Assembly: GCA_900545265.1 (NCBI GenBank) | Contig: UQYI01000003.1 | Span: 8,932 to 72,931, forward strand | DNA from: an uncultured Eubacteriales bacterium | Lineage (GTDB): Bacteria > Bacillota > Clostridia > Christensenellales > CAG-138 | DNA: 64,000 nt | Reading direction: 5' to 3' | Part shown: positions 4,739 to 54,029 of the stretch, piece after piece | Numbering within the stretch: position 1 is the stretch's first letter | Layout of the letters: the number at the start of each line of letters is the position of its first letter | Translations under genes and position numbers: made by a program | The notes under the pieces: generated by a model | Seen by the model: only the letters and a program-made list of their open reading frames with translations | What the model was told of the DNA's origin: nothing | The model's database searches: none

Positions 4739-5005
4739 GCGTGCACCCCGCTTCGTCGCCTGGTTCCCGGCTGGACCCCCGGACAGGTGGCTCCCCGCAG
4801 GAAGACTTGCGGCACACAAACCTATCCGCTTAGTGCTGCTTCCTTCCGGATCTGACACGGTTCACAGCGGTCTGTTGCACAAGACCCGCAGCTCAACACT
4901 CCTTATCCGGGCCATAACCCAAAACCATGCGCCTCAGACGGGGGATCCGGTCCTGCTGTAGCGGATTGCAGGTTCAGGGCACCGCTGATTCCCCACTTGG
5001 CACGC
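4739..5005 (-). ncRNA. ffs: Signal recognition particle RNA, long (Bacillus/Clostridium) type with Alu domain
   Basis: The minus strand contains the universal helix-8 motif GUCAGAUCCGGAAGGAAGCAGCACUAAG and an Alu-like 5' domain (GGUGCCCUGAACCUGCAAUCCGCUACAGCAGG). The 5' GCGUGCC pairs with the 3' GGUGCACGC. Length is about 267 nt, with its own promoter and a U-run. Confidence 0.85.
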
Positions 5006-11171: not shown

Positions 11172-11307
11172 AGTAATCCTTTCCGGGCGGAGCTCATGGC
11201 CCCATACCCCATGATGTTTCTCCTGTATCATACCACACCGCTCTCCCCGGGAAAACCCCTGTAAATGCAAACACATTGAGAAAACTGTAAAAAACGGCTT
11301 TTCTGGC

Positions 11308-11337
11308 AGAAAAAATGCCCGGAGAGCCTTTCCGGGC
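11308..11337 (-). terminator. Intrinsic terminator after scpB
   Basis: Minus strand: GCCCGGA-AAGGCUC-UCCGGGC followed by AUUUUUUC. Confidence 0.65.
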
Positions 11338-11339
11338 GA

Positions 11340-11873
11340 TTATACGTTGTCTATTTCCTCCGGAACGGGCATCTCCGGCAGGGCGGGCAGTTCCTCCAGA
11401 GAATGGAGCCGGAACTTGTGCAGAAAGGCATCGGTCGTTACAAAAAGCAGAGGCCGGCCGGGCACATCCTTGCGGCCGGAAACGGAAATGAGCCCCAGCT
11501 TTTGCAGCTGGGTTACGGCATATTCGCACCGCACCCCCCGTATCTCCTCTATCTCCCCCCGTGTCACGGGCTGTTTATAGGCCACTACAGCCAAAGTTTC
11601 CAGCATGGAGGCGGAGACGGAACGTTTTTGTATGGGCGCAAGGACTTTTTCCACCGCTTCCCCATTTTCCGGAGCGGAAGTCAGCTGCGCGGTTTTGTCT
11701 GTATACAGCAGCCGCAGCCCCCTGCCCTCCCGCAGATAGCTTTCTTCCAACCGTGCAAGGGCTTTGCCCAGAGTATCCGGATCCGTTTCCAGCCCGGCAC
11801 ACAGGGCCGTCAGCGCCACCGGTTCTCCCGCCACAAAAAGGATGGACTCCAGCCTGCTTTCCAATTCCGTCAT
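11340..11873 (-). CDS. scpB: Segregation and condensation protein B
   Basis: 177-aa ORF MTELESRLESILFVAGEPVALTAL...LETLAVVAYKQPVTRGEIEEIRGV..., the ScpB signature. It follows scpA. Confidence 0.9.
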   Translation of the reverse strand: MTELESRLESILFVAGEPVALTALCAGLETDPDTLGKALARLEESYLREGRGLRLLYTDKTAQLTSAPENGEAVEKVLAPIQKRSVSASMLETLAVVAYKQPVTRGEIEEIRGVRCEYAVTQLQKLGLISVSGRKDVPGRPLLFVTTDAFLHKFRLHSLEELPALPEMPVPEEIDNV

Positions 11874-11876
11874 AGA

Positions 11877-12632
11877 TCAGTTTTCCTCGTCCATATAACT
11901 GCCCTCTTCTTCCTCCCGCAGAGTCAATGCCTTCAGTCGGATAGGGGCGAAAGTATCTTTCTGCATTACATGCACCTCTCCCCGGGCCATGAGCTCCAGC
12001 ACCGCCATAAAGGTGACCACCAGCTCCATGCGGGTAGGGCTGCCCGAAAACAGTTCGTAAAAATTCAAGGAAGCTTTTTCCCGAAGGCGGCGGCGAATCA
12101 TCCCTGAACGCTCCCGAACGGTATATACGTCCTGCCGCACCCGGTGAAGCAGCGCCTCTTTTTCTTCGGGCTCCCGGCTAAGCGCCGACAAAAAGGCCAG
12201 CAGCAGGGTATCGGCCTCCACATCCGGTAGGTCTGCCTCCACCGGTGGAGCGGGCAGATCCTCTGGCAATCTGGCAAAAGCTTCCCGACCCCGCTCAAAA
12301 AGACGGCCCAGATCCTCCCCGGCCGTTTTGAATACCTGATACTCCTTCAACCGGCGGATAAAGGCCTGCTCCGGATCTTCCTCTTCTTCCTGCAAGGGGG
12401 GCGGAGCAGGAAGCAGCCGGCGGGATTTGATATACAGCAGCTGGGCCGCCACCAGCAGAAAGTCACTGGCTCCGTCCATCTGCTCCTTGTCCATGTCTCC
12501 CACCGCCTGCAGATACTGGGCGGTGATCTCGGATACGAATATATCCTCGATCCGCAGCTGTGCCTTCTGGATCAGCTGTAAAAGCAGATCCAGGGGGCCG
12601 TCAAACTGTCCGGTGTGTACCTGATACTCCAT
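11877..12632 (-). CDS. scpA: Segregation and condensation protein A
   Basis: Start set at MEYQVHTGQFDGPLDLLLQLIQKAQLRIEDIFVSEITAQYL. This ATG overlaps the TGA of the upstream gene by 1 nt; the ORF track extends to 12788. Confidence 0.85.
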   Translation of the reverse strand: MEYQVHTGQFDGPLDLLLQLIQKAQLRIEDIFVSEITAQYLQAVGDMDKEQMDGASDFLLVAAQLLYIKSRRLLPAPPPLQEEEEDPEQAFIRRLKEYQVFKTAGEDLGRLFERGREAFARLPEDLPAPPVEADLPDVEADTLLLAFLSALSREPEEKEALLHRVRQDVYTVRERSGMIRRRLREKASLNFYELFSGSPTRMELVVTFMAVLELMARGEVHVMQKDTFAPIRLKALTLREEEEGSYMDEEN

Positions 12633-13288
12633 CAAAGCAGCCTCAGGATCCAGTTGTATACCAGATTCTGCGCCCAGTTCAGAGGATACTGCAATACTCC
12701 CAGCCACAGCAGCGCCACCAGTATATACTTGCCGTAACGATGCATGAAATCCCTTATGTTGTGAGGCAGATGCCGTCCCATAACACATTCCAGCACATGG
12801 CTGCCGTCCAGCGGCGGAATGGGGATCAGGTTAAACACGCACAGGCAGGTGTTCATACTGATAATGTTGAAGAAGATGTTTACAAAGGCTTCGTTGTACA
12901 GCAGCGCATAATTGCTTCTGGCCAGCAGCACAAACAGCCCTGAAAACACCAGCACGATCAAAACGTTCATGGTCACCCCCGCCAGGGAAACGATTATATT
13001 GTCCCGGCGGAAGTTCTTGAAGTTCCGATAATTGACGGGCACAGGCTTGGCCCAGCCAAAGCCCAGCAGCAGCATGCACAGCACACCCAGGGGATCAAAG
13101 TGATCCAGGGGGTTCAATGACAAACGCCCCATGTTTTTGGCCGTGGGATCCCCCAACCGGTAGGCCGCATAGGCATGTCCCCATTCGTGGAAAGTGAGCC
13201 CCAGGAGCACTGCCGGAAGCATGTACAAAAGCTGCAGCGGATTTTGAAAATAATACAGGATTCTGTTCATGGTTTCAGTATACCCCAC
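12632..13288 (-). CDS. Site-2 protease family (M50) zinc metallopeptidase
   Basis: 218-aa polytopic ORF with HEWGH (HExxH) and the second motif FNLIPIPPLDGSHV. An alternative start exists at MNRILYYF (13270). Confidence 0.75.
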   Translation of the reverse strand: MGYTETMNRILYYFQNPLQLLYMLPAVLLGLTFHEWGHAYAAYRLGDPTAKNMGRLSLNPLDHFDPLGVLCMLLLGFGWAKPVPVNYRNFKNFRRDNIIVSLAGVTMNVLIVLVFSGLFVLLARSNYALLYNEAFVNIFFNIISMNTCLCVFNLIPIPPLDGSHVLECVMGRHLPHNIRDFMHRYGKYILVALLWLGVLQYPLNWAQNLVYNWILRLL

Positions 13289-13436
13289 CCGAAGCCAAAG
13301 GGCAAGAAAAATCCCCGCGAATCCCGCTTCTTGCGCATAAGCGGATCCCCTTGCACTGGCAAAACAGGCATTGACGCCGATTCAGGCTGCGGATACCGGG
13401 AAGTTCGAAGGAACGTTAATTCACGGGAAGCGGGGG

Positions 13437-13522
13437 TGGGGCGCACTGCGTGCCTGACGGCACGCCTGCGGGGCATTTGCCCCGCAGAGTTCCGGCGGCA
13501 AAGCCGCCGGAACGTGCGCCCC
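13437..13522 (+). repeat. Intergenic multi-hairpin repeat, copy 1 of 3
   Basis: GGGGCGCAC [GCGTGCC-TGAC-GGCACGC] [CTGCGGGGC-ATTT-GCCCCGCAG] [GTTCCGGCGGC-AAA-GCCGCCGGAAC] GTGCGCCCC. Near-identical copies occur at 46473 and 54186. Confidence 0.9.
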
Positions 13523-13650
13523 GCCCATGTATACGGCTCGGCCCCGTGCCCTAACGTCCCAGCCTCCGCCGCAGGAAAATCTCTTTCCTCCGAAAGAGCA
13601 GCTGCATGTTCCTTCTTGTACGTTTTTCCGCAGACCCGTGTTTTTCCCGT

Positions 13651-14778
13651 TCAGCTGCGTATATACGCTTCCATGCACTGCCGGAGAAGCGCCAGATAAC
13701 TCCTGGATTCCACATCCTTCCCTGGGTACAGATCAATCGTGCAAAGCACCTCCTCCCCCGCCCGGAATGTCACCGTTCCTACAGGGGTATCCGTCCGCAG
13801 GGGTGCCGTCAAAGGTTCCGTCACCTCCAGTGTCTTTTCCAGGGCCTCCTCTCCTTTGGGCCGTAGAAAAGCTACGGTATCGTGGCTCACCAGATCCACC
13901 TGTTTTACACTGCCGCTACGCACCTCCACCCCTTCCGCCAGAGGACTGCCCGCCCGGGCGGCGGTGACCTGCCGATAGTTGGCGAATACATGATCCAGCA
14001 ATTCCCCTGCAATGGCAAAGCGCTTCTGACTGTTAGGGGCCCCCAACACCACGGCTACCGCCAGAGTATCATTCTTTTTGGCAGCAAAGACCCCGCAGTA
14101 TCCATCCTGTGCAGAGGATCCTGTCATCAGGCCAAAGCAGCCGCCGTAACTGCGCAGCATTCGATTGGCATTGACCAATTCCGTCCGCCGTCCCCCCGGA
14201 TGGACGATCTCATCCATATATACGCCTGCCCAGCGGCAAAAAGAGGGGCTCCGGGCCGCCTCCAGCCCCAGCAGCGCCAGCTCTCCGGCGGTAAAGGTCA
14301 TGCCCGCCCCGGTGCAGTCGCTGAATTCCTTTTCTACCCCCAGTTCCCGGCAGGTAACGGAGATGTTCTGACAAAACACGTTCTCCGAACCGAAGGCGTT
14401 TTCTCCCAGCGTACACAAGGCATCTCCGGCAGAAAGCATCACCGCCGCTTTAAGCAGTTCTCCGGCAGCTATCTGCTCCCCTGCTTCCAGAAAAGCCGTA
14501 GGCCCGGATATTCCCGCTGCCCGGCGGCTGACGCTCATCAAAGTGTTTTCCTCAATGACTTCGTTGTCAAAGGCTCTGCACAGGGTCAGTACGGCGGGAA
14601 GCTTGCAAAGCCCTGCCGCTGGCAGAGACACGTCTCCCTTCTGCTCCAGCAAAGGCGTCTGCTGTCCTTCTCCCACCACCAAACAGCTTTTACAATCATA
14701 TCCTTCCGCCAACGCCACCGCAGGAACAACCGCCAGCAGGCAAAGGCAGGCAACAAACAGGCACAAAAAACGGCGCAT
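13651..14778 (-). CDS. Secreted S11 (PBP5/DacB-like) DD-carboxypeptidase homologue with degenerate catalytic motifs
   Basis: 375-aa ORF with a signal peptide (MRRFLCLFVACLCLLAVVPAVALA). It aligns by eye to DacF/DacB throughout, including the C-terminal beta-sandwich domain. However, SxxK reads GLCK, SGN reads SAG and KTG reads MTG. Confidence 0.7.
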   Translation of the reverse strand: MRRFLCLFVACLCLLAVVPAVALAEGYDCKSCLVVGEGQQTPLLEQKGDVSLPAAGLCKLPAVLTLCRAFDNEVIEENTLMSVSRRAAGISGPTAFLEAGEQIAAGELLKAAVMLSAGDALCTLGENAFGSENVFCQNISVTCRELGVEKEFSDCTGAGMTFTAGELALLGLEAARSPSFCRWAGVYMDEIVHPGGRRTELVNANRMLRSYGGCFGLMTGSSAQDGYCGVFAAKKNDTLAVAVVLGAPNSQKRFAIAGELLDHVFANYRQVTAARAGSPLAEGVEVRSGSVKQVDLVSHDTVAFLRPKGEEALEKTLEVTEPLTAPLRTDTPVGTVTFRAGEEVLCTIDLYPGKDVESRSYLALLRQCMEAYIRS

Positions 14779-17000: not shown

Positions 17001-17164
17001 GTTTTTCCCTCCGTTTGCTTTTGATTTAAGTATATCCGTCCGGCTGCCAAAGGCAAGCGTTATCTTCTTTCTGCAAAACATCTGTTTTTGCAGAAAGAAA
17101 GGAAACCGATCAAAAGGGCTGTTCAAAAGCCTTTCCGCATGCTATAGTAAGCATGTAAAGAAAA

Positions 17165-17236
17165 GCTCTCATATAGTTTCGCTGAAAACGGTGCGAAAGT
17201 TTCTACAGAGCCGCCGAAAGGCTCTGCTATGAGTGC
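17165..17236 (+). promoter_or_regulatory. Purine riboswitch aptamer, guanine/xanthine class (C discriminator)
   Basis: P1 is CUCAUA (17168-73) paired with UAUGAG (17228-33). J2/3 is GUUUCUAC. P3 is AGAGCC-GCCGAAA-GGCUCU, and J3/1 is GC with C at 17227. The pattern matches the xpt guanine aptamer and lies upstream of a guanine deaminase. Confidence 0.8.
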
Positions 17237-17276
17237 CCGGTATGGATACAGAGTTTCATACGGGCGCTTTTTCTTT
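17235..17276 (+). terminator. Intrinsic terminator forming the riboswitch expression platform
   Basis: GCCCGGUAUG...CAUACGGGC stem (one bulged G) followed by GCUUUUUCUUU, located 28 nt before the guaD start. Confidence 0.65.
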
Positions 17277-17303
17277 CGTAAATGCGTAAAAGGAGGCTGT
17301 ATC

Positions 17304-18560
17304 ATGATCCTGCTCAAAGGCAACATTCTGCACACCCCTGCACCGGGACAGCTGGAAGCCCTCCCCCATGGCGGTCTGCTTCTGGAGGAAGACGGCACCA
17401 TCCGCGCAGTGCTCTCCCATATCCCGGAAGGGTTGGAGGCCCGGGTCATTGACTATGGGGACAGGCTGCTGCTTCAGTCCTTCTGCGATATGCATCTGCA
17501 CGCCCCCCAGTACCCCATGCTGGGCATGGGAACGGATCTGCCCCTGCTTCAATGGCTCCACCGCTATGCTTACCCTACGGAGGCACGTTTTGCGGATACA
17601 GACTACGCCCGGCGGGTCTACCGGCAGCTGGCACAGGTGCTCATTGCCAGCGGCACCACCCGGGTATGCATGTTCTCTTCCCTCCATACCGACGCCACGC
17701 TGATCCTTATGGAAGAGTTGGAAAAGGCCGGAGTCACGGGCTTTGTGGGCAAAGTGAACATGGACAGAAATGGAGATCCCGCCCTGCAGGAGACCACGGA
17801 AGGCTCCAAGCGGGAGACCCTTCGCTGGCTGGAAGCCTGTACCGGATTCCGCTATGTACGGCCCATCCTGACCCCCCGGTTCACCCCTTCCTGCACCGAC
17901 GGGCTCATGGCCTTTTTAGGAGAGCTGGCGCAGGAGCGGGGATTGTATGTGCAATCCCATCTTTCCGAAAATAAAAACGAGGTGGAATGGGTGCGCACTC
18001 TCCACCCGGACTGCTCCCAGTACTGGCAGACCTACGCCAAATTCGGCCTGTGGAAAGAGCATACCCTTATGGCTCACTGCGTCCAGTGCGGAGAAGAAGA
18101 GATCCGTTCCATGGCAGAAAACGGGGTGATAGCCGTGCACTGCCCCGATTCCAACGTGAATATCTGCAGCGGCACAGCCCCCGTTCGCCATCTGCTGGAA
18201 AGCGGTGTATGGGTGACTCTGGGCAGCGATATTGCCGGCGGGGCGCAGCTGCCCATGAACCAGGTCATTACCGCCAGCATACGGGCCAGCAAGGTACGTC
18301 ACATGACGGATCCCGCCGCCCCGCCCTTTCTTACGGCAGCAGAGGGCTACTATCTGGGTGCCGCCTCCGGACACCGTTACTTCGGTGCCGGGCCGGGCTT
18401 TGCCCCGGGGGATAAGCTGCACGCTCTGGTGTTGGATGATTCCGCTTTCCCTGAGCCGGCTTCTCCGCTGTCCCTGCCGGAGCGGCTGGAGCGGGCGCTG
18501 TATCTCATGACTCCCGATTCCATCACCGCACGCTGGTCCGAAGGACGGCTGCTGCCGTAA
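17304..18560 (+). CDS. guaD: Guanine deaminase (amidohydrolase superfamily)
   Basis: Start at MILLKGNILHTP... (AAAGGAGG SD); the ORF track begins at 17229. The metal-binding motif DMHLHAPQYPMLGMG is present, and length and layout fit guanine deaminase. Riboswitch context supports the call. Confidence 0.75.
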   Translation: MILLKGNILHTPAPGQLEALPHGGLLLEEDGTIRAVLSHIPEGLEARVIDYGDRLLLQSFCDMHLHAPQYPMLGMGTDLPLLQWLHRYAYPTEARFADTDYARRVYRQLAQVLIASGTTRVCMFSSLHTDATLILMEELEKAGVTGFVGKVNMDRNGDPALQETTEGSKRETLRWLEACTGFRYVRPILTPRFTPSCTDGLMAFLGELAQERGLYVQSHLSENKNEVEWVRTLHPDCSQYWQTYAKFGLWKEHTLMAHCVQCGEEEIRSMAENGVIAVHCPDSNVNICSGTAPVRHLLESGVWVTLGSDIAGGAQLPMNQVITASIRASKVRHMTDPAAPPFLTAAEGYYLGAASGHRYFGAGPGFAPGDKLHALVLDDSAFPEPASPLSLPERLERALYLMTPDSITARWSEGRLLP

Positions 18561-20959: not shown

Positions 20960-22443
20960 ATGTAAAAAGAAAAGAATCGAAATCTTGTTTTTATCCTTTC
21001 CGTGTGCCTGACTCTGCTCATCTGTCTATGGAGCATACTGCTGCCGGATTCATTCGGCACGGCGGCAGGGAACAGCATGCGCTTTCTTACCACCAACTTT
21101 GCCTGGCTTTACTGCCTGGCCATGACCCTGTTCGTAGCGTTCTGCCTGTGGATAGGGTTGTTCTCCAAATACAGAAATATACCGCTGGGGCCGGACGGAG
21201 CCAAGCCGGAATACAGCAAAAGCGCCTGGTTCTCCATGCTCTTCTGCGCCGGTATGGGCGTAGGTCTGGTCTTTTGGGGAGCGGCAGAGCCCATGAACTA
21301 TTTTGCCGCGCCCATAGGCGGCCTGCAGAGCGGCACCGGCGAGGCCATGCGTTTTGTCTTTGCCCGCTCTTTTCTTCATTGGGGCATTCACCCCTGGGCC
21401 AATTATTCCGTGCTGGCGCTGGCACTGGCCTATATGCAGTTCCGCAAAGGGCAGCCGGGGCTCATCAGTTCCGTGTTCATCCCCCTCATCGGGGAAAAAA
21501 GAGCCCGAGGCTGGTTGGGAAAAACGGTGGATGTGCTCTCCGTCTTTGCTACGGCCGCAGGGGTAGCCACTTCTTTGGGGCTGGGGATCCTGCAGCTTAA
21601 CGCCGGGCTGCACTTTCTCACCGGGCTGCCGGAAACGGCTCTGGTACAGCTCTTATTCTGTTTCTGGCGGCGGTGTATATCCTTACGGCAGTAGTGGGCA
21701 TTGAAAAGGGCATGAACACCGTCAGCAAGCTGAATATCCGGGTCAGCATGGGCGTCCTGCTTCTGTTGGTGGTTATCGGCCCCACGGTGCCCATTCTCAA
21801 CAACCTGCTGAAAGGCGCAGGCGCCTATTTAAGCTCTCTGCTTTCCATGACTACAGAGGTAGGAGCCTTTGGAGACGAGGGTTGGTATCGCACCTGGACC
21901 GTATTCTATTGGGCCTGGTGGATTGCCTGGGCTCCCTTTACGGGCTCCTTTATAGCCAGGATCTCCCGCGGCCGCACCATTGGGGAATTTATAAAAGGCG
22001 TTATGTTCCTGCCCGCCGGTTTTTCGGTGATCTGGTTCACTGTATTCGGCACGCTTGGTATGCGCCTGGATATTTCCGTTGTCAAAGAAGCCATAAAGTC
22101 CACTTCCACCGCATTATTTGTGGTATTGCAGCAGTATCCCCTGGGCACGGTGCTGTGCGCCGTTATGGCGCTGCTGATCTTTACCTTTCTGGTCACGGCT
22201 TCCAACTCCGCTACCTATGTGCTGGGCATGTACAGTGAAGGGGGCACTTTGCAGCCTTCCAACAGGAGTAAGATCATATGGGGCGCTCTCATTGCGGCGC
22301 TGGCTGCGATAATGATGCTGGGCACGGGCAACGGCCTTTCCATGCTGCAAACCTTATCCATTGTGGCGGCCTTCCCCTTCATTTTCATCATGCTGGCAGC
22401 TATGCCCGCCCTTGTAAAGGCGCTGAAAGAAGAAAAGCTTTGA
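20960..22443 (+). pseudogene. BCCT-family (betaine/carnitine/choline) transporter, disrupted by a codon-2 TAA and a frameshift near 21650
   Basis: ATG 20960 is followed by TAA 20963. Family-like sequence occupies ORFs 21002-21694 and 21673-22443 in two frames (...FCAGMGVGLVFWGAAEP...; ...VFYWAWWIAWAPFTGSFIARISRGRTIGEF...). Confidence 0.8.
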
Positions 22444-22518: not shown

Positions 22519-23073
22519 TCAGTTTACAAGCCACTCCTTTTTCAATCGCCACAAGGCAGCCTGGAGATAAGCCAGTTCTTCCGGCGGGATCAGCAGATTC
22601 CGCCGCCAGCTGTTCAGTATTTCCTGCCTTTGCACCGGGTAAAAGGGCGTCAGGAACACCTGACTGCCGTGAAAAACGCCCACACAGCGCAGCTCTTTTT
22701 CAAAAGCCTCCTCCTCATCCTTTTCCTTGCCCAGATACGAAAGATTCAGCACCCTGTTCCAGCGGCGGCTGTCGAAAAACAGACAGTCTTTTCTGGGAAC
22801 ATTCAATACCAGCAGCTGTCCGTCTCCATATACGCCCGCTCCCAAAGCGGTTCCGTGGAGCCAGTAGGGAGACTCTTCTCCGGTTTCCGGCGGAATACGT
22901 TCTGCCATCAGTTCCCGAAAAAATCCATAAGCGATTTGAAAGCTTTTGGCCTCTGCTCCATATTTTTCTGCTACATATGCCTTTTTGACTTGTACAATGC
23001 CGTCTTTTTGCAGAGCTGCCGCCACGGCATCCGCCTGACGGGTATACAGAAGAATACAGCTTTCACGCTCCAT
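22519..23073 (-). CDS. DUF3841-like protein (paralogue B)
   Basis: 184-aa ORF with ...ESPYWLHG...LLVLNVPRKDCLFFDSRRWNRVLN...WRLKKEWL. It shares a motif pattern with the adjacent paralogue. The family assignment is from memory. Confidence 0.55.
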   Translation of the reverse strand: MERESCILLYTRQADAVAAALQKDGIVQVKKAYVAEKYGAEAKSFQIAYGFFRELMAERIPPETGEESPYWLHGTALGAGVYGDGQLLVLNVPRKDCLFFDSRRWNRVLNLSYLGKEKDEEEAFEKELRCVGVFHGSQVFLTPFYPVQRQEILNSWRRNLLIPPEELAYLQAALWRLKKEWLVN

Positions 23074-23647
23074 AGACCGCTCCTCTCAGCCACTCCCGTT
23101 TCAGCTCCCATACGGTGCCCTGGCACAGTCCGCTGCCGGTAGCAGGGTCCTCAAAGACCCTGTCCCAGCTTTGTATGATCTTCCGCTTCAGCAGCGGATA
23201 AAAGTTCCCCTTTCCGGTCTGGATAAGGGCCGTCTCATTGCCGATGCCGTTGCGCTTAAGCTCTGCTTCGTGGGCATCCCGATCCTTTTCATCCAGAGGG
23301 ATATACAGATAGTTCACCCGGTATCCCCAGCGCTCCACATCCGTCAGCACCACAAGATCCCGTGGGATCTCCAGTTCCAGACACACGCTGCCCGGCAGGG
23401 ACGGCAGTTTGTTTTCCTCCTCCAGAAACAGCCAGATGGGGTACTCCGCCCCCTCCGGGCGGGGTACCAGTCTTTCGGCATGACGGACGTACCAGTCATA
23501 CAGCTCCAGGTAATATTGACTGATAGCCCCGCTCTTTTCCTCGATATGGCTTTTTTGTACCCGGTACACACCTGTCTGTTCCAATGTTTTCAGAACCTGG
23601 GGATGCTGGCGGGTATAGGCCCGCAAGGTCTTTCCTGATAATTCCAT
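23063..23647 (-). CDS. DUF3841-like protein (paralogue A)
   Basis: Start at MELSGKTLRAYTRQHPQVL... (GAAGGAG SD); the ORF track extends to 23929. Motifs seen: YDWYVRHAERL...AEYPIWLFL...LELEIPRDLVVLTDVERWGYRVN...VWELKREWL. Confidence 0.6.
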   Translation of the reverse strand: MELSGKTLRAYTRQHPQVLKTLEQTGVYRVQKSHIEEKSGAISQYYLELYDWYVRHAERLVPRPEGAEYPIWLFLEEENKLPSLPGSVCLELEIPRDLVVLTDVERWGYRVNYLYIPLDEKDRDAHEAELKRNGIGNETALIQTGKGNFYPLLKRKIIQSWDRVFEDPATGSGLCQGTVWELKREWLRGAVYGA

Positions 23648-23733: not shown

Positions 23734-25042
23734 TTATATTTTCACCTTGAATACGGTCTGTTCCGTAATATCCGTGGCCAGTGCTTCCAAAGCCACGCCC
23801 ACCCGGTGATACCGCAGCTTCCACCGCTCTGCCGCCGGAGCATTTGGATCTCCCAGCGGATAGGGAATGGAAATGGTCGGCACGATCCGGTTGGCCCCTA
23901 CGGTCAGGGACACGGGGATCAGGTTGCACATATGCACAATGGGGAACCCTGCCTTTTCAAACTCTTTTACCATCGTTGCACCGCAACGCGTACAGGTGCC
24001 TCATGTGGAGCCCATAATAATGGCGGTTACCCCGTCTTCCTGCAAAAAGGGAATCATCTCGCCGGGCCTCAGCCTCAGTAGTGCCTGTGCCTACGGTGGA
24101 ATAGAACCAGTTATGGAGCCGGCCGATCTTTCCTTCCCGTTCATAGGCGCGCATGGCATCCAGCGGCACGATCACGTTGGGGTCGGCGTTGGCGGCAGCC
24201 GGGTCAAAGCCGGCGTGGATGGTTTTGAACTGACCGGCGCTGAGACGCTCCATACCGGAAACGTCATAGCGTCCCCAGCGGGTAGCAGAGGCGGACTGGA
24301 TGCGATCCGGATTATCCACAGGAACGATGCCGCCGGTAGTCACCAGTGCCACCACCGCCTTGGAAAGATCCCGGATGGCCGGTGCAATGGGCACCATCTC
24401 CTTTTCGGGAATGATGAGCTCCGTCTGATAGGGCAGCTTGTTCATCTTTTGGATGAGCATCTGCACCCTGCGGTAAGCGGCGGTATTCTCCCTGATATTC
24501 TCCAGAAATTTTTCGTGCCGGCAGCCCCGGGGGAAGTATCCCTCTGCCAAGGCGCCCTCATTGGGCAGCCCCTGCAGGAGCTTATTGGCAAAGGCGGCCA
24601 TTGCTTTTACATCCTGACGCATCTTTACGGCTCCGTTGCCGCCCTTAAAAATGATCACATCCCGCTTGAACATTTCCACACCGGGGTTTTCTTCGTTCAT
24701 GGAAGTGATCACGGGGATATGGAGCCGTTCCTTCACCGCTTTGCATATGTTGCCGCAGGCCACGCCGTAACGCCCTGCCTGAAAGGCGGGTCCGGCAATA
24801 AACAGATCGCAGGGTTTATCCTGCAGCATATCCATGATCCGGGAAAGAGCCTCTTCCGTATGAGAGCCCATAAAGTTGTCGCCGCAAACCACGGTGTGCG
24901 TGATCTCGGCTCCCTTGAGCGCCGCCTTGAAAGCCATGCCGGGGCCCACCACGCCCTCCATGATATAGGGCTCCTGGTCTGCCTTATCCTCTCCGCCCAC
25001 ACCGGCGAAGAACTGATTGAGATAACAGATAACCTTCTTCAT
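23734..25042 (-). pseudogene. Glycine/sarcosine/betaine reductase component B selenoprotein subunit (GrdB/GrdF/GrdH family), with Sec-UGA and an apparent frameshift
   Basis: N-terminal part is MKKVICYLNQFFAGVGGEDKADQEPYIMEG... (ORF 23957-25042). The Sec motif IIMGST-UGA-GTCTRCGATMVKEFEKAGFP lies in another frame, with UGA at 24003-24001, and that frame continues to the stop at 23734. Confidence 0.8.
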
Positions 25043-25053
25043 GCCGCACCTCC

Positions 25054-25584
25054 TTAATATTCGATCATGGTCTTGACGGAGAACCCGGAGATATGATCCC
25101 CGCAGAACCAGTTGTTATCCTCCATGATAATGGAGCCGTCGTCCCTGGCGGATTTGCCCAGCTTTTCATCGTAGCCCCAGCTGCCGGACATACCGTCCCG
25201 GTTCATGGCCTCCAGATTACCTATGACCGTCTTGCAGGCGGGCAATTCCGTAAGTTCCGAAACATTCCCCGTAGAAACCAGAGCGTTCATCTTGGCGTCC
25301 AGCGTTACCAGCGGCTGGGAGAAGCCGTCCCGTCCGGTGCATTCGTTAGAAATGCCTACCACGGGGATCCCCGCATCCTCCAGAATCACCTGACAGCGGA
25401 CGTAATCGGTGTCGGGGTTGCCGTATCCCTCTTCGGTGACGATGGCATAATCCACACCCAGGTTTATGCATCCTTTTCTCCCAGGCAGACGGATCTTACC
25501 TGAAAATTCCCTATTTTGAGTTTCAAAGCAGTAACTCCTTTCTTGCGTGTGGTAATGGGGGACTCGATAACTTTCGGAGAGCAT
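25054..25584 (-). pseudogene. C-terminal remnant of a GrdE/GrdI-type reductase proprotein subunit
   Basis: 176-aa ORF. ...LGVDYAIVTEEGYGNPDTDYVRCQVILEDAGIPVVGISNECTGRDGFSQPL... matches only the C-terminal third of the family. The N-terminal two thirds are missing here. Confidence 0.7.
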
Positions 25585-25753
25585 TCTTTAATCATGATTA
25601 TAAAATTAAAAAGTAAAAAAATCAGGATGATTTAACAATTTGATCGTTTTTTCGATTACTTTACATGGGAGCTTTTTACATCCATACCTCTGGCGCAAAG
25701 AAAGTGAATGTGGTAGTATGTTTTAGAAATCTTGATTTGAAAAGAGAGTATCC

Positions 25754-26419
25754 ATGGGACGACCCAAACTGAAACAGACGGCCAGCGATGCCATCAAGCA
25801 GCGCCTTATTGAAAGCACCCGCAAACGCATCAAAGCGGAGGGGCTCTCCGGTGTGACCATCCGGAGCATCGCCCAGGACGCATCGCTGAACAGTGCCGTT
25901 TTATACAAGTATTTTGAGAATCTGGATGAACTGCTGCTCTTTGCCTGTGTGGATACTCTACGGGACTATACGGCAGCCCTGCTGGAAGCCGAAGCCAGCA
26001 CCGAAGCTTTCACGCCCCGGGAACGGTATATGACCAGCTGGACGCTGTTCTGCCGCCATGCGTTTTCAAACCCGGAAAGCATACGGCACCTGTTTTTCAG
26101 CGCCCAGAGTGCCCGGCTTAAACCGGTGATCCAGGAATACTACCGGCTGTTTCCCGGTGAGTTGGGCGATATGCCCCAATGCCTGCAGCAAATGCTGCTG
26201 GAAGCGGATCTCAGCTGCCGAAACCTGGCGGTTCTTCAACTGGTTCTGGAGGGAAAGATACCGCCCCATGAACTGGTGCTGCGAAACGAGTTGACCATCG
26301 CCGCCTTTTATATGCTTTTGACCCAGCGCATCCAATTCCCGGATCAATACCCGGCAGAACGGCAGCAGGCCCGAATGCTGGAAGCCTGCGCTGCTCTTTT
26401 GCGGCCCTTTGCCGAATAA
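25754..26419 (+). CDS. TetR/AcrR family transcriptional regulator
   Basis: 221-aa ORF with the N-terminal HTH GLSGVTIRSIAQDASLNSAVLYKYFENLDEL. Confidence 0.8.
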   Translation: MGRPKLKQTASDAIKQRLIESTRKRIKAEGLSGVTIRSIAQDASLNSAVLYKYFENLDELLLFACVDTLRDYTAALLEAEASTEAFTPRERYMTSWTLFCRHAFSNPESIRHLFFSAQSARLKPVIQEYYRLFPGELGDMPQCLQQMLLEADLSCRNLAVLQLVLEGKIPPHELVLRNELTIAAFYMLLTQRIQFPDQYPAERQQARMLEACAALLRPFAE

Positions 26420-26464
26420 ACAGTCTTCCGCAGCGTCCCGCTGGAAAGCAAGAGCTATATGTGC

Positions 26465-26510
26465 AAAAAAGCAGCCGTCTCCTCATGGAGGAAACGGCTG
26501 CTTTCTTAAA
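26465..26510. terminator. Bidirectional terminator between convergent genes
   Basis: AAAAAAGCAGCCGU-CUCC-UCAU-GGAG-GAAACGGCUGCUUUCUU. Confidence 0.6.
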
Positions 26511-26529
26511 TCGCGTTGCTGCACTCACA

Positions 26530-27678
26530 TCATAGCATTTCCAAAAAGGCTTCCAACCGGGTAGACAGCTGTCCTGCATCCCCTGTGGAGTAATCCGTCT
26601 CCAGTGTCAGACACCGCAGTCCCAGCTTTTCCATCTCTTTGCGGACGGTACGGCTCTCGATCATATAAGGGGTACAGGCTTGCAGATCGATCTCCACCAC
26701 TCCATCCACCGCATATTCCGAAACCAGCTTTTTCAGCAGCTCCATGCGCACGGTGTTGGGCGTCATAACGGCGCAGCCGATACCCAGGTACCGCTCTGCA
26801 ATGGCTGCCAGAATATCCTCCGCCTCTTCATCCACCATTTGATAAGCCGCCTTGATGCCACTGCAGTTTTCAAAGCACACCACGGTGCCGCCATGCGCTT
26901 CAATGGTCTTGATGGTCTTTTCCAGCACGCCGCCAATGGGGCAGCCCGTTACCAGGATCCTTTTGGCATGGGGATCCACCTGGTTTTCTCCGGCAGCAAA
27001 GGCCTTTTGGATATCCTCCCGCAGACCGCGGATCTTTGCCACCCGTTCCTCATGATCAAAAAGGAAACCGGATCCTTCCAGCGTTTTATACAGATCATAA
27101 CCCTGCGCCATGGGCGGATTCTGCTTTTGCAGCTCCATCAGGGCCAGCCGTTCCCTCCGCTCCAGATTGCGGGCATGAGCCGCCCTGCGCAAAGCCTCAT
27201 CGGTGATCGTTAAAGAAAAGGTCTCTTCCAGATATGCCTTAAAGCGCCGCACCTCTGCCGTCCACTCCTGCAAAGCGTCCGGTCCGCTGCCCTGGGGAAG
27301 TTTTAATATATAGGTGGGGCGAATGTGATTCAGCAGCTCATACATCTTCTTTTTTCCGTCGCAGGTGGTCTCCCCTACGATCAGGTCGGAAAAGTAGGTG
27401 TACGGGCATTTATCGGAAACGGCAAACCCGTAGCTGGATTTGATCAGCGGGCACAGGTTTTTAGGCAGATCCGCTTCCGCCGCCGGGATCGTTTCTGCGC
27501 TCATGCCGCACAGGCTCACCGGGGTAAATCCCGCCGCATCCAGAATTTCCGAGGGAGTAAAGGTGCAGAATATTCCGGCAATATGGCCACCGTTATCCTT
27601 TATCTCCTTTACTTTGAGGAACCCGTTTTTCCGGGCATCGCCAAATTCTGCAAACTGTGCAGGCAGATCTCTTGTCAT
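26530..27678 (-). CDS. 2-hydroxyacyl-CoA dehydratase / BcrC-BadD-HgdB family protein (double-cubane-cluster-type)
   Basis: 382-aa ORF ...IAGIFCTFTPSEILDAAGFTPVSLCG...LCPLIKSSYGF...GETTCDGKKKMYE...VTGCPIGG...FENCSGIK. The conserved Cys pattern fits the family. No activator ATPase gene is adjacent. Confidence 0.65.
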   Translation of the reverse strand: MTRDLPAQFAEFGDARKNGFLKVKEIKDNGGHIAGIFCTFTPSEILDAAGFTPVSLCGMSAETIPAAEADLPKNLCPLIKSSYGFAVSDKCPYTYFSDLIVGETTCDGKKKMYELLNHIRPTYILKLPQGSGPDALQEWTAEVRRFKAYLEETFSLTITDEALRRAAHARNLERRERLALMELQKQNPPMAQGYDLYKTLEGSGFLFDHEERVAKIRGLREDIQKAFAAGENQVDPHAKRILVTGCPIGGVLEKTIKTIEAHGGTVVCFENCSGIKAAYQMVDEEAEDILAAIAERYLGIGCAVMTPNTVRMELLKKLVSEYAVDGVVEIDLQACTPYMIESRTVRKEMEKLGLRCLTLETDYSTGDAGQLSTRLEAFLEML

Positions 27679-28148
27679 CCTTTTTACCTCTCTTCATTTA
27701 TGGGGCAAAATGCCGGTCTGTTAAAACAAAAGCTGCCGGACAAAACCCTAACAGCGATTCATATAAGTATATCCCCTGTTTTTTCTTCTGACAAAACGGA
27801 TAAAACGAACAAACCGCATTTTGATCGTTATAAACGATTCTTATTCATTTTGACATTCCTTCTTTGTCATCCGATATTTTTATGCGTTTTGTTTCCTTCG
27901 ATTTTTCACACTTTTATTCTGCCCGGCAGAAAATAATTTTTATTTTTTGTGTTTTCTCTTTTTTCCTGTGTTTCAGGTATTTTTTATCACTGGTTGTACG
28001 AGAACTTCGGAATTATCGATTGTATAAGTACTTGTCAAAAATGGTAAAGTATGATATTTTAGTTTTGATTTTGGTTTTGTCGTGCACGTGTATGCGCGCT
28101 GCCATGCCCCTAAAGCCAAACAACAAAAACAAGATATGGAGTACATGT

Positions 28149-30269
<2,121 letters not shown>

Positions 30270-30288
30270 ACAATCTGACTGCACACCA

Positions 30289-30323
30289 GGCGGCCGCCCG
30301 ATCATGGACGGCCGCCGTTTTTT
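30289..30323 (+). terminator. Intrinsic terminator after hppA
   Basis: GGCGGCCG-N12-CGGCCGCC followed by GUUUUUU. Confidence 0.8.
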
Positions 30324-30521
30324 AGGTCTCATCCCCAAAGCCAACTTTATTTTGCGGTCGGCTGCGCATATTACGTTCATGCCGAAAACCATGCAGAACG
30401 CTTTCAAAGCAGCCCATTGAACAAAAAATCGGCCGTCCATTTACGCACACCGGGTTTCATGATATGTTTATATAAAATTCAGTCTGTCCGGCTCTGTCTG
30501 CCAGGCACAGGAGAAGCTCCC

Positions 30522-31817
30522 ATGGAAATTGCCCGCATACTGGAAAAGCTTAAAGAGTCCCCCTGCACCTGGAACTATTTCGGTCCCCCTTCGGAAGAGG
30601 TTTTTGCCGTAAGTCTTACCGGTTCCGGCGCTCATTTTCACTCCGGTGTACTGTACTCAACACCACGGATCGTTACCAGTATGCCCATCTGTATGAAAAC
30701 ATGTGCATCCTGGTCACGGAGCCCTATCATGCTTCCCGCCTTTTTGAGATCGTCCAGCAGCGGCTTTTCTTCCGGGGATACGACCCTGATCACCGCCTGC
30801 CGCCCGAATGCTTTTCTTATGCGGCTGCAAAACAGTCCCTTTATGCTTTTGGAACCGGGAGATGGATTGGATCCCCTGCCCCGGCGTATGCTGTATATGC
30901 GTATCTGTCAGGAACAGGCAGATATACTTCTGTTCACCGCAGAGCAGGAAAACAGCTTTGCAGATACGGATGCTGCCTCCAGGCTGGCCGCCCTGCGCGA
31001 AGCATTCGCCAGCATTCCCTTGAAGCAGGAGCACCTTTGTCCGCAGCTGCAGCTGCAGAACCTGCTGTTCCGGCTGCTGCAAAACAAGCCTTCCAATGAA
31101 GAGGATATCAAAAAGCAGCTGACTGCGCTGGGCTGGACTTTTTATGAAAAATACTATGTGCTGGCCATCTACCGAAAGCTGCAGAACTGCCCCGGCTCTC
31201 TGGCGGAGGAGATCTCCCATATTCTGGGGGAAAAGGTGTATGAATTTGGGGATTATTACATCAGTATCCTCCATTCGGACTGGAAAACGGAGCTGTATGC
31301 GCTTTTCGGGCGCAATTTCCCCGAGCTTAAAGCCCTGATCCAGCGCACGGATATGTATGCTTCCCTGAGTTACGGCTTTTTTGACATTATCAACGCCGCC
31401 ACCGCCATGAAGCAGGCTACCCGCTGCATCGAGATCATCCGCAAATTCAGCTGGTCACAGCGCATCAACGGCTACGGGGATATGGTCATCTCCCACCTGA
31501 TCGATACCGCTCTGGCCTGCGGAGAGATCACACTGGACAGCGTATGCCACCCCATTGCACTGAAGATCAGGGAATACGATGACAAAAACGGTACGGATCT
31601 GCTGGATGTGCTGGCCACTTACATTTATTCCGGCTTGTCCGTAAAAATCTCCTCCGAATATCTGCATATGCATATCAACACCGTATATCAGCGGATACAC
31701 AAGCTGGAAGAGGATTTCGACATTGATTTCAGTGACCGGCGCATTGTCACCATGCTCCATATCTCCATCATTGCCATGGCCTACCGGGGAGATTACCCCG
31801 CCGACCGGTATCTGTAA
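30522..31817 (+). CDS. PucR/CdaR-family transcriptional regulator, with a possible internal out-of-frame stretch
   Basis: Start at MEIARILEKLKES (AGGAGA SD). The C-terminal PucR HTH reads LLDVLATYIYSGLSVKISSEYLHMHINTVYQRIHKLEEDF. Residues ~47-110 look non-protein-like, whereas an alternative frame looks coding. Confidence 0.65.
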   Translation: MEIARILEKLKESPCTWNYFGPPSEEVFAVSLTGSGAHFHSGVLYSTPRIVTSMPICMKTCASWSRSPIMLPAFLRSSSSGFSSGDTTLITACRPNAFLMRLQNSPFMLLEPGDGLDPLPRRMLYMRICQEQADILLFTAEQENSFADTDAASRLAALREAFASIPLKQEHLCPQLQLQNLLFRLLQNKPSNEEDIKKQLTALGWTFYEKYYVLAIYRKLQNCPGSLAEEISHILGEKVYEFGDYYISILHSDWKTELYALFGRNFPELKALIQRTDMYASLSYGFFDIINAATAMKQATRCIEIIRKFSWSQRINGYGDMVISHLIDTALACGEITLDSVCHPIALKIREYDDKNGTDLLDVLATYIYSGLSVKISSEYLHMHINTVYQRIHKLEEDFDIDFSDRRIVTMLHISIIAMAYRGDYPADRYL

Positions 31818-31950
31818 AACGGCCCAAACCCAAAATCCTCCCTTGACAGGGAGGATCCGGGCAGCATGGCTGCCTCCTGTTTGCCGCATCTGGGGTAAAG
31901 AATGCGGCGACAGCCACTCTATTTCTACTTACAGGAGGGGAGACACTTTT

Positions 31951-32770
31951 TCACTTTGCAGCGGACGGTCCCTGGTCATGCAGGAGCCGCCGCTGTTTTT
32001 TATATACACCGTTCACCAGCAGCAGCGAAAGCAGCGTGGCAGCGGCACAGAAAAGATAGTATCCGGTATAGCTGCCGGTCGCATCCGCCAACAGCCCCGG
32101 CAGCGGAGACATGCACAGCCCGCCCAGAGTACAGCAGGACTGAAGCTTTTTCAGTGTGGAGGCATACTGGGCTTCATCCGTCAGTTCCGCCACCCACATG
32201 GGGGTTCCTACGGTGCTGATGGTAAAGCAGCCCAGCCCCAGACATATGGCCACCGCATATACCGGCAAAGGCGATATGCCGTTGAAGCATACCACGCCCA
32301 CATGGCCCAGTATCAGCATCCCGTAATACAGCAGGTTGGCTTTTTCCACACCCATGGCGTCTGCCGCCACGCCGTAAAGGGGCTTGCCTACCATGTTCAT
32401 AAGGCCGTTAAGGGCCATGACGGAGCTGACAAACACCACGTCATACCCGGCCGCAATGGTTGAAAAGTTAAAATTATCCCAGCTGCAATAGGTAAAGAAG
32501 CCTGCGCAGACCATGGCAATGCCAAGCAGGAGCACTACCTGCTTCCCTACCGGGGGAAGCTTTTTCTTTTCTTTCTGAACGGAATGTTCCCACGCCCCAT
32601 AGGGTGCCAGCTGCAGCGCCTCCGGGCTTTCCCGCAGGAAAAGGAGCACCACCAGCCCCAGCAGGGCAAAGAGCCCGCCCATGATCAGTTCCGCCGTCAG
32701 AACACCTTTTTCGGATACGATCCCGGTAACGGGTACAGACAGAAGCAGCGAAGTCACTCCTGAGCTCATG
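31951..32770 (-). pseudogene. MFS transporter, 5'-truncated and fused in frame to the reductase remnant
   Basis: This is the C-terminal ~270 aa of ORF 31951-32952. It has 2 TM helices, a central loop (RESPEALQLAPYGAWEHSVQKEKKKLPPVGK) and 6 TM helices. About 4 N-terminal TM helices are absent. The junction position is approximate (32766-32787). Confidence 0.65.
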
Positions 32771-33149
32771 GCACATATAAAGGGCACATCCTCTTTGGGA
32801 TCGGCATTTTCGGCTACAAACACCAGGTTGATGAGCTTTGCATAGGGAGACATCTCGGCCGCCGGGCCGGACATATCCACCATACCGTTCATGCCCTGCC
32901 GGCTGTGCAGCCCGGCGCCCAGCACGCACATACCGTCCAGTGCGTAGGTCACGCCGCTGCCTTGACGGGAATGATGCGGGTGCTGTCTCCCGGCCGGGCA
33001 ATGTGCAGGGAAACGTTTTTCAATTTTCCGTCCTTATTCAGCGCCTCTATGGCTTCTTCCCGGTTTACGGTGAGGATCCCGTCCGCAAAGGCGTTTTCTT
33101 CACCGAACCGAACGTCTTTGACGCTGAAATGTCCGATCTCCAATTTCAT
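32771..33149 (-). pseudogene. N-terminal remnant of a GrdE/GrdI-type reductase proprotein subunit, in two frames
   Basis: MKLEIGHFSVKDVRFGEENAFADGILTVNREEAIEALNKDGKLKNVSLHIARPGDSTRIIPVK is followed by a stop. Family-like sequence then resumes in another frame: GSGVTYALDGMCVLGAG...GMVDMSGPAAEMSPYAKLINLVFVAE. Confidence 0.7.
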
Positions 33150-33220
33150 GTCCTGAAATCCCTCCTCTTATATGCACGCCTCAAAGGGCCGTTGCATTGA
33201 CCGAATAAATTACCAGTTCA

Positions 33221-33249
33221 ATTATATGGAAATAACCGATACATTTCAA
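33221..33249 (-). promoter_or_regulatory. Consensus sigma-A promoter upstream of the reductase remnant
   Basis: Minus strand: TTGAAA (33249-44), 17-nt spacer, TATAAT (33226-21). A GAGGAGGGA SD precedes the ATG at 33149. Confidence 0.6.
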
Positions 33250-33609
33250 TGTGACTCACGTACATGAAATTCCATAAAAGCAGAGTTTTCTTCCATATGC
33301 TTTTTAATTTTATGTTCTATTTTGGCGTACTGTGGGCGGATATTGTACCGCAAAGGTTCCTTTTTTCACCTCTGTACTCACAAGAAGCCGCGTCCGGATG
33401 GCTTTTCTGTCACAATAACTTCACATTTTTCCATCCGTTTTTATGAAAAACAGTCTCTCCCTTTCCGTCGTTTTATAAAGAAAATTCCCTCGGGTGCACA
33501 AAATAAATACAAAAAAGTCCCTTGGATGCACAAAGCAAATGTGATACTGTAAGAAAGAATCAACAGGCAGCACCTGCCCCAGCCTTTGCGGGTGCTCAAA
33601 GGAGGATCT

Positions 33610-53809: not shown

Positions 53810-54029
53810 TGGGTCTTGTTCATGGCAAAAGAGCCTCCGCTGATTTGCCTTGCCGCCGGGAAGCTGCCTCCCGAAAGCTTTACGACAGGTCTCCACGCTG
53901 CCGCACCGCTGAACAAAGCGGGTTCTCTCCTTTCACGATTCCCCTCAGGGCATGAAGTGGAGTGCCGAAAGGGGGCTGAAATAGATAAGTACAAAAAGTC
54001 TGCAAAAGCAATCCTTTCTGCCTGTTTAC

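Follow-up and report, generated by a model that had tools for sequence, protein, structure and literature searches.

Remnants of two tandem substrate-specific protein B modules at a betaine reductase locus of a prevalent human-gut Clostridia species

Results

Two partial genes of one protein family

The 64,000-nt stretch of DNA analysed here (the window) comes from an uncultured, very prevalent human-gut Clostridia species and carries, between positions 33149 and 25054 of the minus strand, two partial genes of the GrdE/GrdI family. A preliminary description, made from the sequence alone, had taken them for the N- and C-terminal halves of one proprotein gene split by a 7.2-kb segment. We find instead that they are the outer ends of a two-module array: the "N-half" is the 5′ end of the alpha gene of one module (module 2), and the "C-half" is the 3′ end of grdI, which belongs to a betaine module (module 1). 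Our preferred reading, to which we assign a probability of about 0.93, is that of two decayed neighbouring reductase genes, each deleted separately in the course of ordinary ongoing gene decay.

Window open reading frames (ORFs) and DNA were searched with Pfam, NCBIfam and Rfam profiles, from which the E-values and bit scores given here are taken. Comparison contigs from a public assembly collection are labelled L0xx. The same species is represented by, among others, L015, L017, L020–L025, L057 and L058, the sister species by L026 and L053/L054, and relatives with a complete module 2 by L018, L026 and L053/L054; the strain survey of the locus genes covered 22 contigs. The two remnants consist of the following features.

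33149..32949 (−): codons 1–66 of the module-2 alpha gene, a GrdE/GrdI-family paralogue; 66-aa ORF ending at a frameshift stop (Pfam Gly_reductase 1–65, E 1.9e-21)
32962..32953 (−): AGGCAGCGGC, the sole remaining copy of a 10-nt direct repeat and scar of a 76-nt deletion
32952..31951 (−): 333-aa ORF, whose first 52 residues match Gly_reductase 94–143 (E 6.8e-8), followed by MFS_1 128–325
32777..32952 (−): codons ~92–150 of the module-2 alpha gene in a shifted frame; residues 1–59 of the 333-aa ORF correspond to L018 residues 92–150 (83–84% identity)
31951..32776 (−): MFS gene from codon 141 to its end, the first 140 codons lost; fused in frame to alpha codon 150 at junction 32777|32776
25464..25541 (−): 5′ stub of grdI, with a ribosome-binding site (RBS) AAAGGAG at 25541..25535, a TTG start at 25526 and 20 codons at 25526..25467
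25464..25054 (−): grdI codons 307–442 and stop codon, out of frame with the 5′ stub
25584..25054 (−): 176-aa ORF, whose residues 37–173 match Gly_reductase positions 297–425 (E 1.4e-43)

The ORFs and the family membership of both pieces (Gly_reductase 1–65, 94–143 and 297–425) are thus as first described, and so is the fusion of the N-terminal remnant to a 5′-truncated MFS gene, since no stop separates the remnant from MFS_1 128–325 across the 32777|32776 junction. A functional GrdE/GrdG/GrdI subunit (PF09338) is a single ORF of ~430–445 aa running along profile positions 1–426, as in intact relatives. Neither window copy has this form: one gene covers positions 1–65 and 94–143, the other 297–425 together with the 20-codon stub.

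The remnants belong to different paralogues

The assumption that both remnants derive from one gene did not survive identity comparison, which assigns them to different paralogues of the same Pfam family. The C-terminal remnant is 94–96% identical to GrdI (96% to residues 302–442 of the same-species protein) versus 38–40% to the module-2 alpha protein, whereas the N-terminal pieces are 70–84% identical to the module-2 alpha protein versus 29–44% to GrdI; the 66-aa piece alone shares 84% with residues 1–64 of the intact 435-aa L018 orthologue and 43–44% with GrdI. The paralogues themselves are 34% identical within one genome (L026) and 34–40% overall. Fragments of an interrupted gene would represent one orthologue, and these do not (96% vs 40% for one, 84% vs 43% for the other, with two start codons).

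The two starts lie at 33149 and, with its own RBS, at 25526. A start belonging to the C-terminal remnant is incompatible with this remnant being the distal half of a gene that starts at 33149. The second start, overlooked in the preliminary description, comes to light when the sequence immediately preceding the C-terminal remnant is read in all three frames: TTG AAA CTC AAA ATA GGG AAT TTT CAG ... GAT GCA TAA (25526..25464), encoding MKLKIGNFQVRSVCLGEKDA and a stop. This is a second N-terminus of the GrdE/I type, different in sequence from MKLEIGHFSVKDVRFGEENAF at 33149, and the stub matches codons 1–20 of the full-length grdI of L015 and L021 without a difference. It lies in another frame than the 176-aa ORF, and its TAA stop arises at the deletion junction 25465|25464. 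The 176-aa ORF sits 12 nt upstream of a GRDB-family gene.

Full-length grdI (442 aa) is found at this site in other strains of the species (98–99% nucleotide identity): L020–L025 (one of them the NCBI metagenome-assembled genome GCA_037369085.1) and L055–L058 carry it, uninterrupted except in L023. In contigs reaching upstream of grdI, the full-length gene adjoins the same tetR, double-cubane-cluster and pyrophosphatase (PPase) genes, with tetR in the same position in L015, L020–L025 and L057. The presence of full-length grdI at the same site with the same upstream genes implies that the 7.2-kb interval did not insert into grdI. In database queries, full-length GrdI retrieved thousands of 442-aa proteins, and short queries retrieved short fragments (100–240 aa, many with the same start). 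A naturally split or selenocysteine (Sec)-containing GrdI was also considered and rejected: in L016 the apparent split is a run of Ns at a gap in the scaffold, that in L015 is a TGG-to-TAG nonsense codon, and 442-aa homologues number in the thousands.

The sister species (L026, L053/L054) has both modules intact, in tandem and in the same orientation, in the order alpha, selenoprotein B2, sodium:solute symporter (SSF), MFS, PucR(−), tetR(−), grdI, grdH, DUF3841, BCCT(−). Its GrdI is 89% identical to that of the window species and is indexed in 770 blocks of the assembly collection. In L018, L026 and L053/L054, module 2 consists of an alpha protein of 435 aa, a GrdH-like selenoprotein of 347 aa + U + about 85 aa, an SSF of 503 aa, an MFS of 400–413 aa and a PucR-type regulator on the opposite strand (L053 1858–8937; L018 9763–17009; L026 9566–16645), and in L026 and L053 it lies directly upstream of tetR-grdI-grdH. 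An interrupted gene would have an empty counterpart in relatives; here, strains with full-length grdI have the same upstream genes, and the sister species keeps MFS, PucR and tetR between the two genes. Considering that the remnants are orthologous to different paralogues and that the corresponding sites are filled, the intervening DNA is resident between two tandem modules and not an insert. An intact grdI at the position of the C-terminal remnant, which the preliminary description had thought worth looking for in related genomes, therefore exists within the same species; the 7.2-kb block that was taken to split it is resident DNA.

Deletions account for both truncated genes

The loss in grdI can be defined exactly. 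L015 and the window are 99.2% identical in nucleotide sequence over 29353..25465 and 98.1% over 25464..23981, and between these two blocks L015 has exactly 856 extra bp (L015 3890–4745), which restore the frame of a 442-aa grdI; in L015 itself this gene carries one TGG-to-TAG nonsense codon. The junction in the window reads GATGCATA|AACCTGG and, in the comparison with L015, has no microhomology. The deletion removes codons 21–306 of 442 and, its length not being divisible by 3, brings a stop directly after codon 20.

The module-2 alpha gene lacks codons 67–91 and 151–435 of about 435. The smaller gap is the 76-nt deletion: L017 and L020–L025 hold both repeats (AGGCTGCGGC ... AGGCAGCGGC) with the intervening sequence, at a start-to-start spacing of 76 nt. 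This deletion accounts for the "about 25 missing residues" and the change of frame, both noticed earlier and both real. Deletion between short direct repeats is typical of replication slippage. The larger gap is a ~4.3-kb deletion, equivalent to L018 coordinates about 10213–14543, which took out the second selenoprotein-B gene and the SSF gene; L018, L026 and L053 have selenoprotein-B, SSF and MFS 5′ sequence between the alpha and MFS junction points. In blastp, residues 59–322 of the 333-aa ORF correspond to residues 141–397 of the intact 400-aa L018 MFS at 64% identity. Contig L017, 98% identical to the window at the nucleotide level, reads on in alpha-gene sequence on the far side of the MFS junction (...EDVPFMDNVHYIKASCRLAEYVGK), implying that undeleted alleles exist, or recently existed, in the species. 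An exact and degenerate DNA search for this sequence gave 0 matches in JGI metagenomes, and a protein scan gave other species only.

The alpha gene has further alleles. L017 1–728 is a third allele, which keeps the 76-nt segment and the sequence past the MFS junction and has a 5-nt deletion of its own; its N-terminal region also occurs in two more frameshifted forms, P0097 and P0122.

Taken as deletional pseudogenes, the genes of the locus show deletions of 856 bp (relative to L015, L021 and L058), 76 nt (L017, L021) and, in grdH, 11 nt (L002, L058), no length being a multiple of 3. The earlier statement that the central ~130 residues are absent presumes a single gene; the actual losses are codons 21–306 of 442 in one gene and 67–91 plus 151–435 of ~435 in the other. 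The accompanying suggestion that a self-cleavage Cys was lost probably does not apply to the C-terminal remnant, since published work describes GrdI as neither a proprotein nor self-cleaving (PMC10838667); the same-species intact GrdI, which has no Cys between residues 153 and 330, is consistent with this. In C. difficile GrdE, processing occurs at Cys242 and the pyruvoyl group is at residue 242 (PMC9908766); the central region of the module-2 orthologues has Cys201 only (in their own numbering).

grdH and the downstream genes

Downstream of grdI, the window contains the following features.

23734..25042 (−): grdH (betaine reductase selenoprotein B) pseudogene (Pfam GRDB, E 4e-146)
24000..23963 (−): SECIS element directly 3′ of the grdH Sec TGA (Rfam RF01990 SECIS_4, 62.5 bits, gathering score 38)
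22519..23647 (−): two tandem DUF3841 genes downstream of grdH (Pfam DUF3841)
20960..22443 (+): pseudogene of a BCCT transporter of the glycine-betaine type; codon 2 is a stop, and the frame shifts near 21652

The preliminary description was right about a grdB/H-like gene at this place, and it overlooked that this gene is itself frameshifted. An 11-nt deletion at 24061|24060, seen as a gap relative to L002, L015 and L007, shifts the frame 57 nt upstream of the Sec TGA, which is kept at 24003..24001. The truncated window ORF scores 551.8 bits on NF040795 (betaine_GrdH), and the intact same-species allele of L058 (439 aa, U written as C) reaches 776.6 bits, passing the cutoff of 775 by a small margin. 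An intact selenoprotein-B partner beside an alpha gene is thus absent from the window: grdH is frameshifted and the module-2 partner gene is wholly deleted.

The BCCT lesions were confirmed by tblastn with the intact 495-aa L058 protein, whose residues 1–231 align in one frame with one stop and residues 233–495 in another frame. The intact BCCT has its best match in NF047988 (betaine_BCCT) at 562 bits, below the cutoff of 650, and passes TIGR00842. As the BCCT of L016 is only 54–55% identical to that of the window, the L058 same-species allele was used as the reference.

The DUF3841 genes, in one or two copies, also lie beside grdH and BCCT in other contigs, L016 (5437–6562), L053 (12776–13351) and L058, which suggests that DUF3841 is functionally linked to betaine reductase loci. 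A more distant relative, L016 (8336–20552), in which the C-terminal region of GrdI is 91% identical, has a complete cluster in the order tetR, grdI, grdH, trxB, trx, grdA (Sec), grdC and grdD, followed by selD and selA. In the window species, DUF3841 and BCCT follow grdH in place of the trxB/trx/grdA/grdC/grdD genes of the L016 type.

Genes between the two remnants

The interval has the gene content first described (tetR, double-cubane, PPase and PucR), as borne out by Pfam and NCBIfam matches.

25754..26419 (+): TetR-family regulator, divergent from grdI (Pfam TetR_N)
26530..27678 (−): double-cubane-cluster reductase gene (HGD-D family), intact (NCBIfam NF040772, 486 bits, cutoff 350)
28149..30269 (+): membrane pyrophosphatase gene, intact (Pfam H_PPase, E 5.6e-189)
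30522..31817 (+): PucR-type regulator of module 2, intact in the window (Pfam HTH_30)

A repeat search of 24800–33400 gave no terminal repeats, and no integrase, transposase or recombinase is among the called genes of the interval. The view that no mobile element is involved and that illegitimate recombination, in the form of deletion, is the cause can therefore be retained.

In L018, L026 and L053, PucR likewise lies beside the MFS gene, and the two are oriented to each other as in the window. No covered copy of PPase or tetR is damaged, and L006 is the one surveyed strain without an intact double-cubane gene. PucR shows at least three different disruptions across strains (N-terminal loss with a stop, frameshifts and a nonsense codon, in L001, L006, L007, L011, L013, L020–L025 and L057) and appears to be decaying together with module 2. 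The PPase and double-cubane genes (window 26530–30269) lie between PucR and tetR in this species only and are missing from that place in L053/L026; the sister species has 124 nt between PucR and tetR (L053 8937–9061). The sister-species tetR is only 43% identical to the window tetR, though the adjacent GrdI is 89% identical. The PPase/double-cubane block is a lineage-specific replacement or insertion between the modules.

Outside the locus, the sporulation and housekeeping genes of the window flanks (SpoIIGA, SpoIIE, PrfA, PrmC, Sua5, UPRTase and ScpA) are all intact. Rfam searches also detected three RNAs unrelated to the locus: a purine riboswitch at 17149–17249 (+), overlapping the 5′ end of the ORF at 17229–18560; a malK-I RNA at 53804–53980 (−), overlapping the 5′ end of an ABC ATPase ORF at 52691–53896 (−); and a large SRP RNA at 4739–5005 (−).

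Lesions differ between strains

In the lineage of the window, the alpha–MFS chimera has the 76-nt deletion, grdI has the 856-bp deletion, and grdH is intact, 11-nt deleted or otherwise frameshifted. In L020–L025, the chimera is uninterrupted, grdI is intact except in L023, grdH has a 1-nt deletion at about codon 29 and PucR is broken. Their chimera (L020–L025 10001–11275, equivalent to window 33149–31951) is the 424-aa protein P0129, composed of GrdE-like residues 1–150 and MFS residues from 141 to the end; its start and RBS are the native ones, and 75 blocks of the collection contain it. Across strains, grdI is damaged by deletion, nonsense codon or frameshift and grdH by the 11-nt deletion, the 1-nt deletion or another frameshift. 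In many strains whose grdI is deleted, grdH is uninterrupted, with its Sec codon and SECIS element.

Intact alleles survive as well. L058, from a Hadza sample, shares 98.6% identity with the window along 10.4 kb and carries intact grdI, grdH, both DUF3841 genes and the 495-aa BCCT gene (L058 16–5447), and L057 (6782–12218) has intact grdI and grdH; the supposition that no strain has both genes intact was overturned by these two contigs. In all, grdI and grdH were seen both intact on only three contigs of the species, two of which, L057 and L058, come from Hadza/Nepal cohort assemblies (ERZ4559915, ERZ4567913), a tiny sample; in other public gut metagenomes the deleted alleles predominate. That loss of the betaine module is a recent sweep, still segregating in the species and tracking host lifestyle, is a tentative and rather unlikely proposal; if true, it would give a tangible example of a microbiome function lost in association with lifestyle, and grdH-based counts of trimethylamine potential would include many dead loci.

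Alternative explanations

One alternative is that of the preliminary description, a single grdE/grdI gene broken by insertion or rearrangement of a 7.2-kb segment. It would explain why both remnants match one Pfam family in non-overlapping parts of the profile (1–143 and 297–425), on the same strand and 7.2 kb apart. It is at odds with the second start and its 20 codons at 25526, with the orthology of the remnants to different paralogues, and with same-species strains that have full-length grdI at the site behind the same upstream genes. Relatives moreover hold a full-length second paralogue with its own partner genes upstream of MFS, and tetR, PucR and MFS belong to the modules themselves rather than being cargo; the interval shows neither terminal repeats nor a called integrase or transposase. 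We regard a split gene as refuted by the orthology of the remnants and the filled sites, its remaining probability being very small. An artefact of assembly or sequencing, whether a chimeric contig or frameshifts that are mere indel errors, has a probability close to nil, even though several adjacent genes are frameshifted here, as in error-prone assemblies. Exact look-up found the 176-aa product in 611 blocks and the 66-aa product in 889 blocks of the public assembly collection; the contigs concerned are up to about 0.9 Mb long and stem from numerous independent metagenomes of the human gut and from different assemblers, with gene order always the same. Since hundreds of independent assemblies share the junctions and the remnant proteins, the misassembly that the preliminary description had allowed for does not account for them. 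The lesions are deletions of 856, 76 and 11 nt and point nonsense changes rather than homopolymer slips, and the flanking housekeeping genes and the PPase gene are intact.

A different possibility is that the remnants are kept for an acquired function, either as a chimera of GrdE-like residues 1–150 and MFS residues from 141 to the end or as a stand-alone 176-aa GrdI C-terminal domain. In one lineage (75 blocks) the in-frame junction yields a 424-aa ORF with native start and RBS, remnant ORFs are widespread, and the within-species ratio of nonsynonymous to synonymous polymorphism (pN/pS) is not clearly neutral. However, the 76-nt deletion frameshifts the chimera in the commoner lineage, the window included; the 176-aa ORF starts in the former 5′ untranslated region, in a frame other than that of the native start, and has no RBS of its own; and an MFS protein short of its first 140 residues (about four helices) would probably not fold into a transporter. 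Decay also affects the partner genes in parallel, and recent common descent explains the high prevalence. We therefore regard an acquired function as very unlikely.

Several observations nevertheless count against two separately decayed genes, or limit how far that reading can be taken. The pN/pS of the remnants is 0.2–0.4 versus 0.08–0.18 for intact neighbours, a slight excess that rests on very few substitutions; between lineages, the corresponding divergence ratio (dN/dS) is slightly raised, again with too few substitutions. The uninterrupted 424-aa chimera of some strains leaves room, strictly speaking, for a residual or new function. Same-species sequence across the ~4.3-kb deletion amounts to 56 nt in L017 only, and both the size and the right breakpoint of this deletion derive from other species (64–84% amino acid identity). 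Finally, no grdA, grdC, grdD, thioredoxin or Sec-insertion gene lies within the 64-kb window, and the proposed cause of the decay is an inference.

Discussion

Proposed course of decay

The region preserves the ruins of two substrate-specific protein B modules that stood in tandem and formed part of the glycine/betaine reductase system. The betaine module, module 1, comprises tetR, grdI, grdH (a selenoprotein gene), two DUF3841 genes and BCCT. Module 2, composed of a GrdE/I-family alpha gene, a GrdH-like selenoprotein gene, SSF, MFS and PucR, may encode a candidate reductase for an uncharacterised substrate: its selenoprotein scores 550 bits against the GrdH cutoff of 775 and lies below every substrate-specific NCBIfam cutoff, and its alpha protein lies far below the GrdG and FarE cutoffs. 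The module-2 SSF symporter of relatives is PutP/PanF-like.

In the lineage of the window, the ~4.3-kb deletion, its size estimated from other species, came first, joining alpha codon 150 in frame to MFS codon 141 and destroying four genes. A 76-nt deletion between the 10-nt direct repeats then frameshifted the chimera, the 856-bp blunt deletion removed grdI codons 21–306, and the 11-nt deletion frameshifted grdH, with BCCT gaining a nonsense codon and a frameshift. The ~4.3-kb deletion is common to both common lineages, indicating that it is older, whereas the 76-nt and 856-bp deletions are limited to the window lineage and are hence younger. Selection for the reduction of betaine and of the module-2 substrate has probably ceased in this lineage, so that the genes would drift neutrally. 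Judging from sequence, no piece in the window is able to make a functional reductase subunit, and the bacterium appears to be losing its betaine-to-trimethylamine pathway.

Consequences for annotation and for marker genes

The 66-, 333- and 176-aa ORFs are called as genes in hundreds of assemblies ("glycine reductase", "MFS transporter", "hypothetical protein") and should be flagged as pseudogene fragments. The gene grdH serves as a marker of betaine-derived trimethylamine potential in gut metagenomes and in quantitative PCR (PMC6964529, PMC5537630). As grdH often looks intact while its obligatory partner grdI is deleted in a prevalent species, marker counts could overestimate functional betaine reductase. 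The locus also offers a stepwise, within-species view of pathway decay, from the in-frame chimera through lineage-specific hits to surviving intact alleles.

Comparison with known systems

Glycine reductase GrdE of Clostridium sticklandii and C. difficile belongs to the same Pfam family as the remnants, PF09338. The remnants have their best NCBIfam matches in the GrdG model, with 235 and 295 bits against a cutoff of 780, and GrdE orthology is supported for neither.

The closest counterpart of module 1 is the betaine reductase GrdI/GrdH of the Eubacterium acidaminophilum type. The locus shares with it the order grdI then grdH, a nearby BCCT gene of the betaine type, and the in-frame TGA of GrdH within an STUG motif followed by a SECIS element; the intact same-species allele reaches the GrdH cutoff. 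It differs in the state of the window copy, in which grdI lacks codons 21–306, grdH is frameshifted, BCCT is broken and grdA, grdC and grdD are absent from the window.

Cloacibacillus porcorum has several protein B modules (glycine, sarcosine, betaine, proline and FarB/FarE), every one of them served by a separate transporter (PMC10838667). The sister species resembles this multi-module genome, with two tandem alpha/selenoprotein-B pairs, transporters (BCCT for one, SSF and MFS for the other) and a regulator each. In the window species, unlike C. porcorum, both modules are being lost, and the module-2 selenoprotein lies below all substrate-specific cutoffs.

The locus as a whole resembles the deletional pseudogenes and deletion-made fusions that accompany pathway loss in bacteria. 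It has in common with them precise junctions, one of which lies between short direct repeats, several independent and strain-specific lesions, and intact alleles in a minority of strains, and there is no essential difference. Deletional pseudogene formation and the making of an in-frame fusion by deletion are already known, and the locus is a new instance of both.

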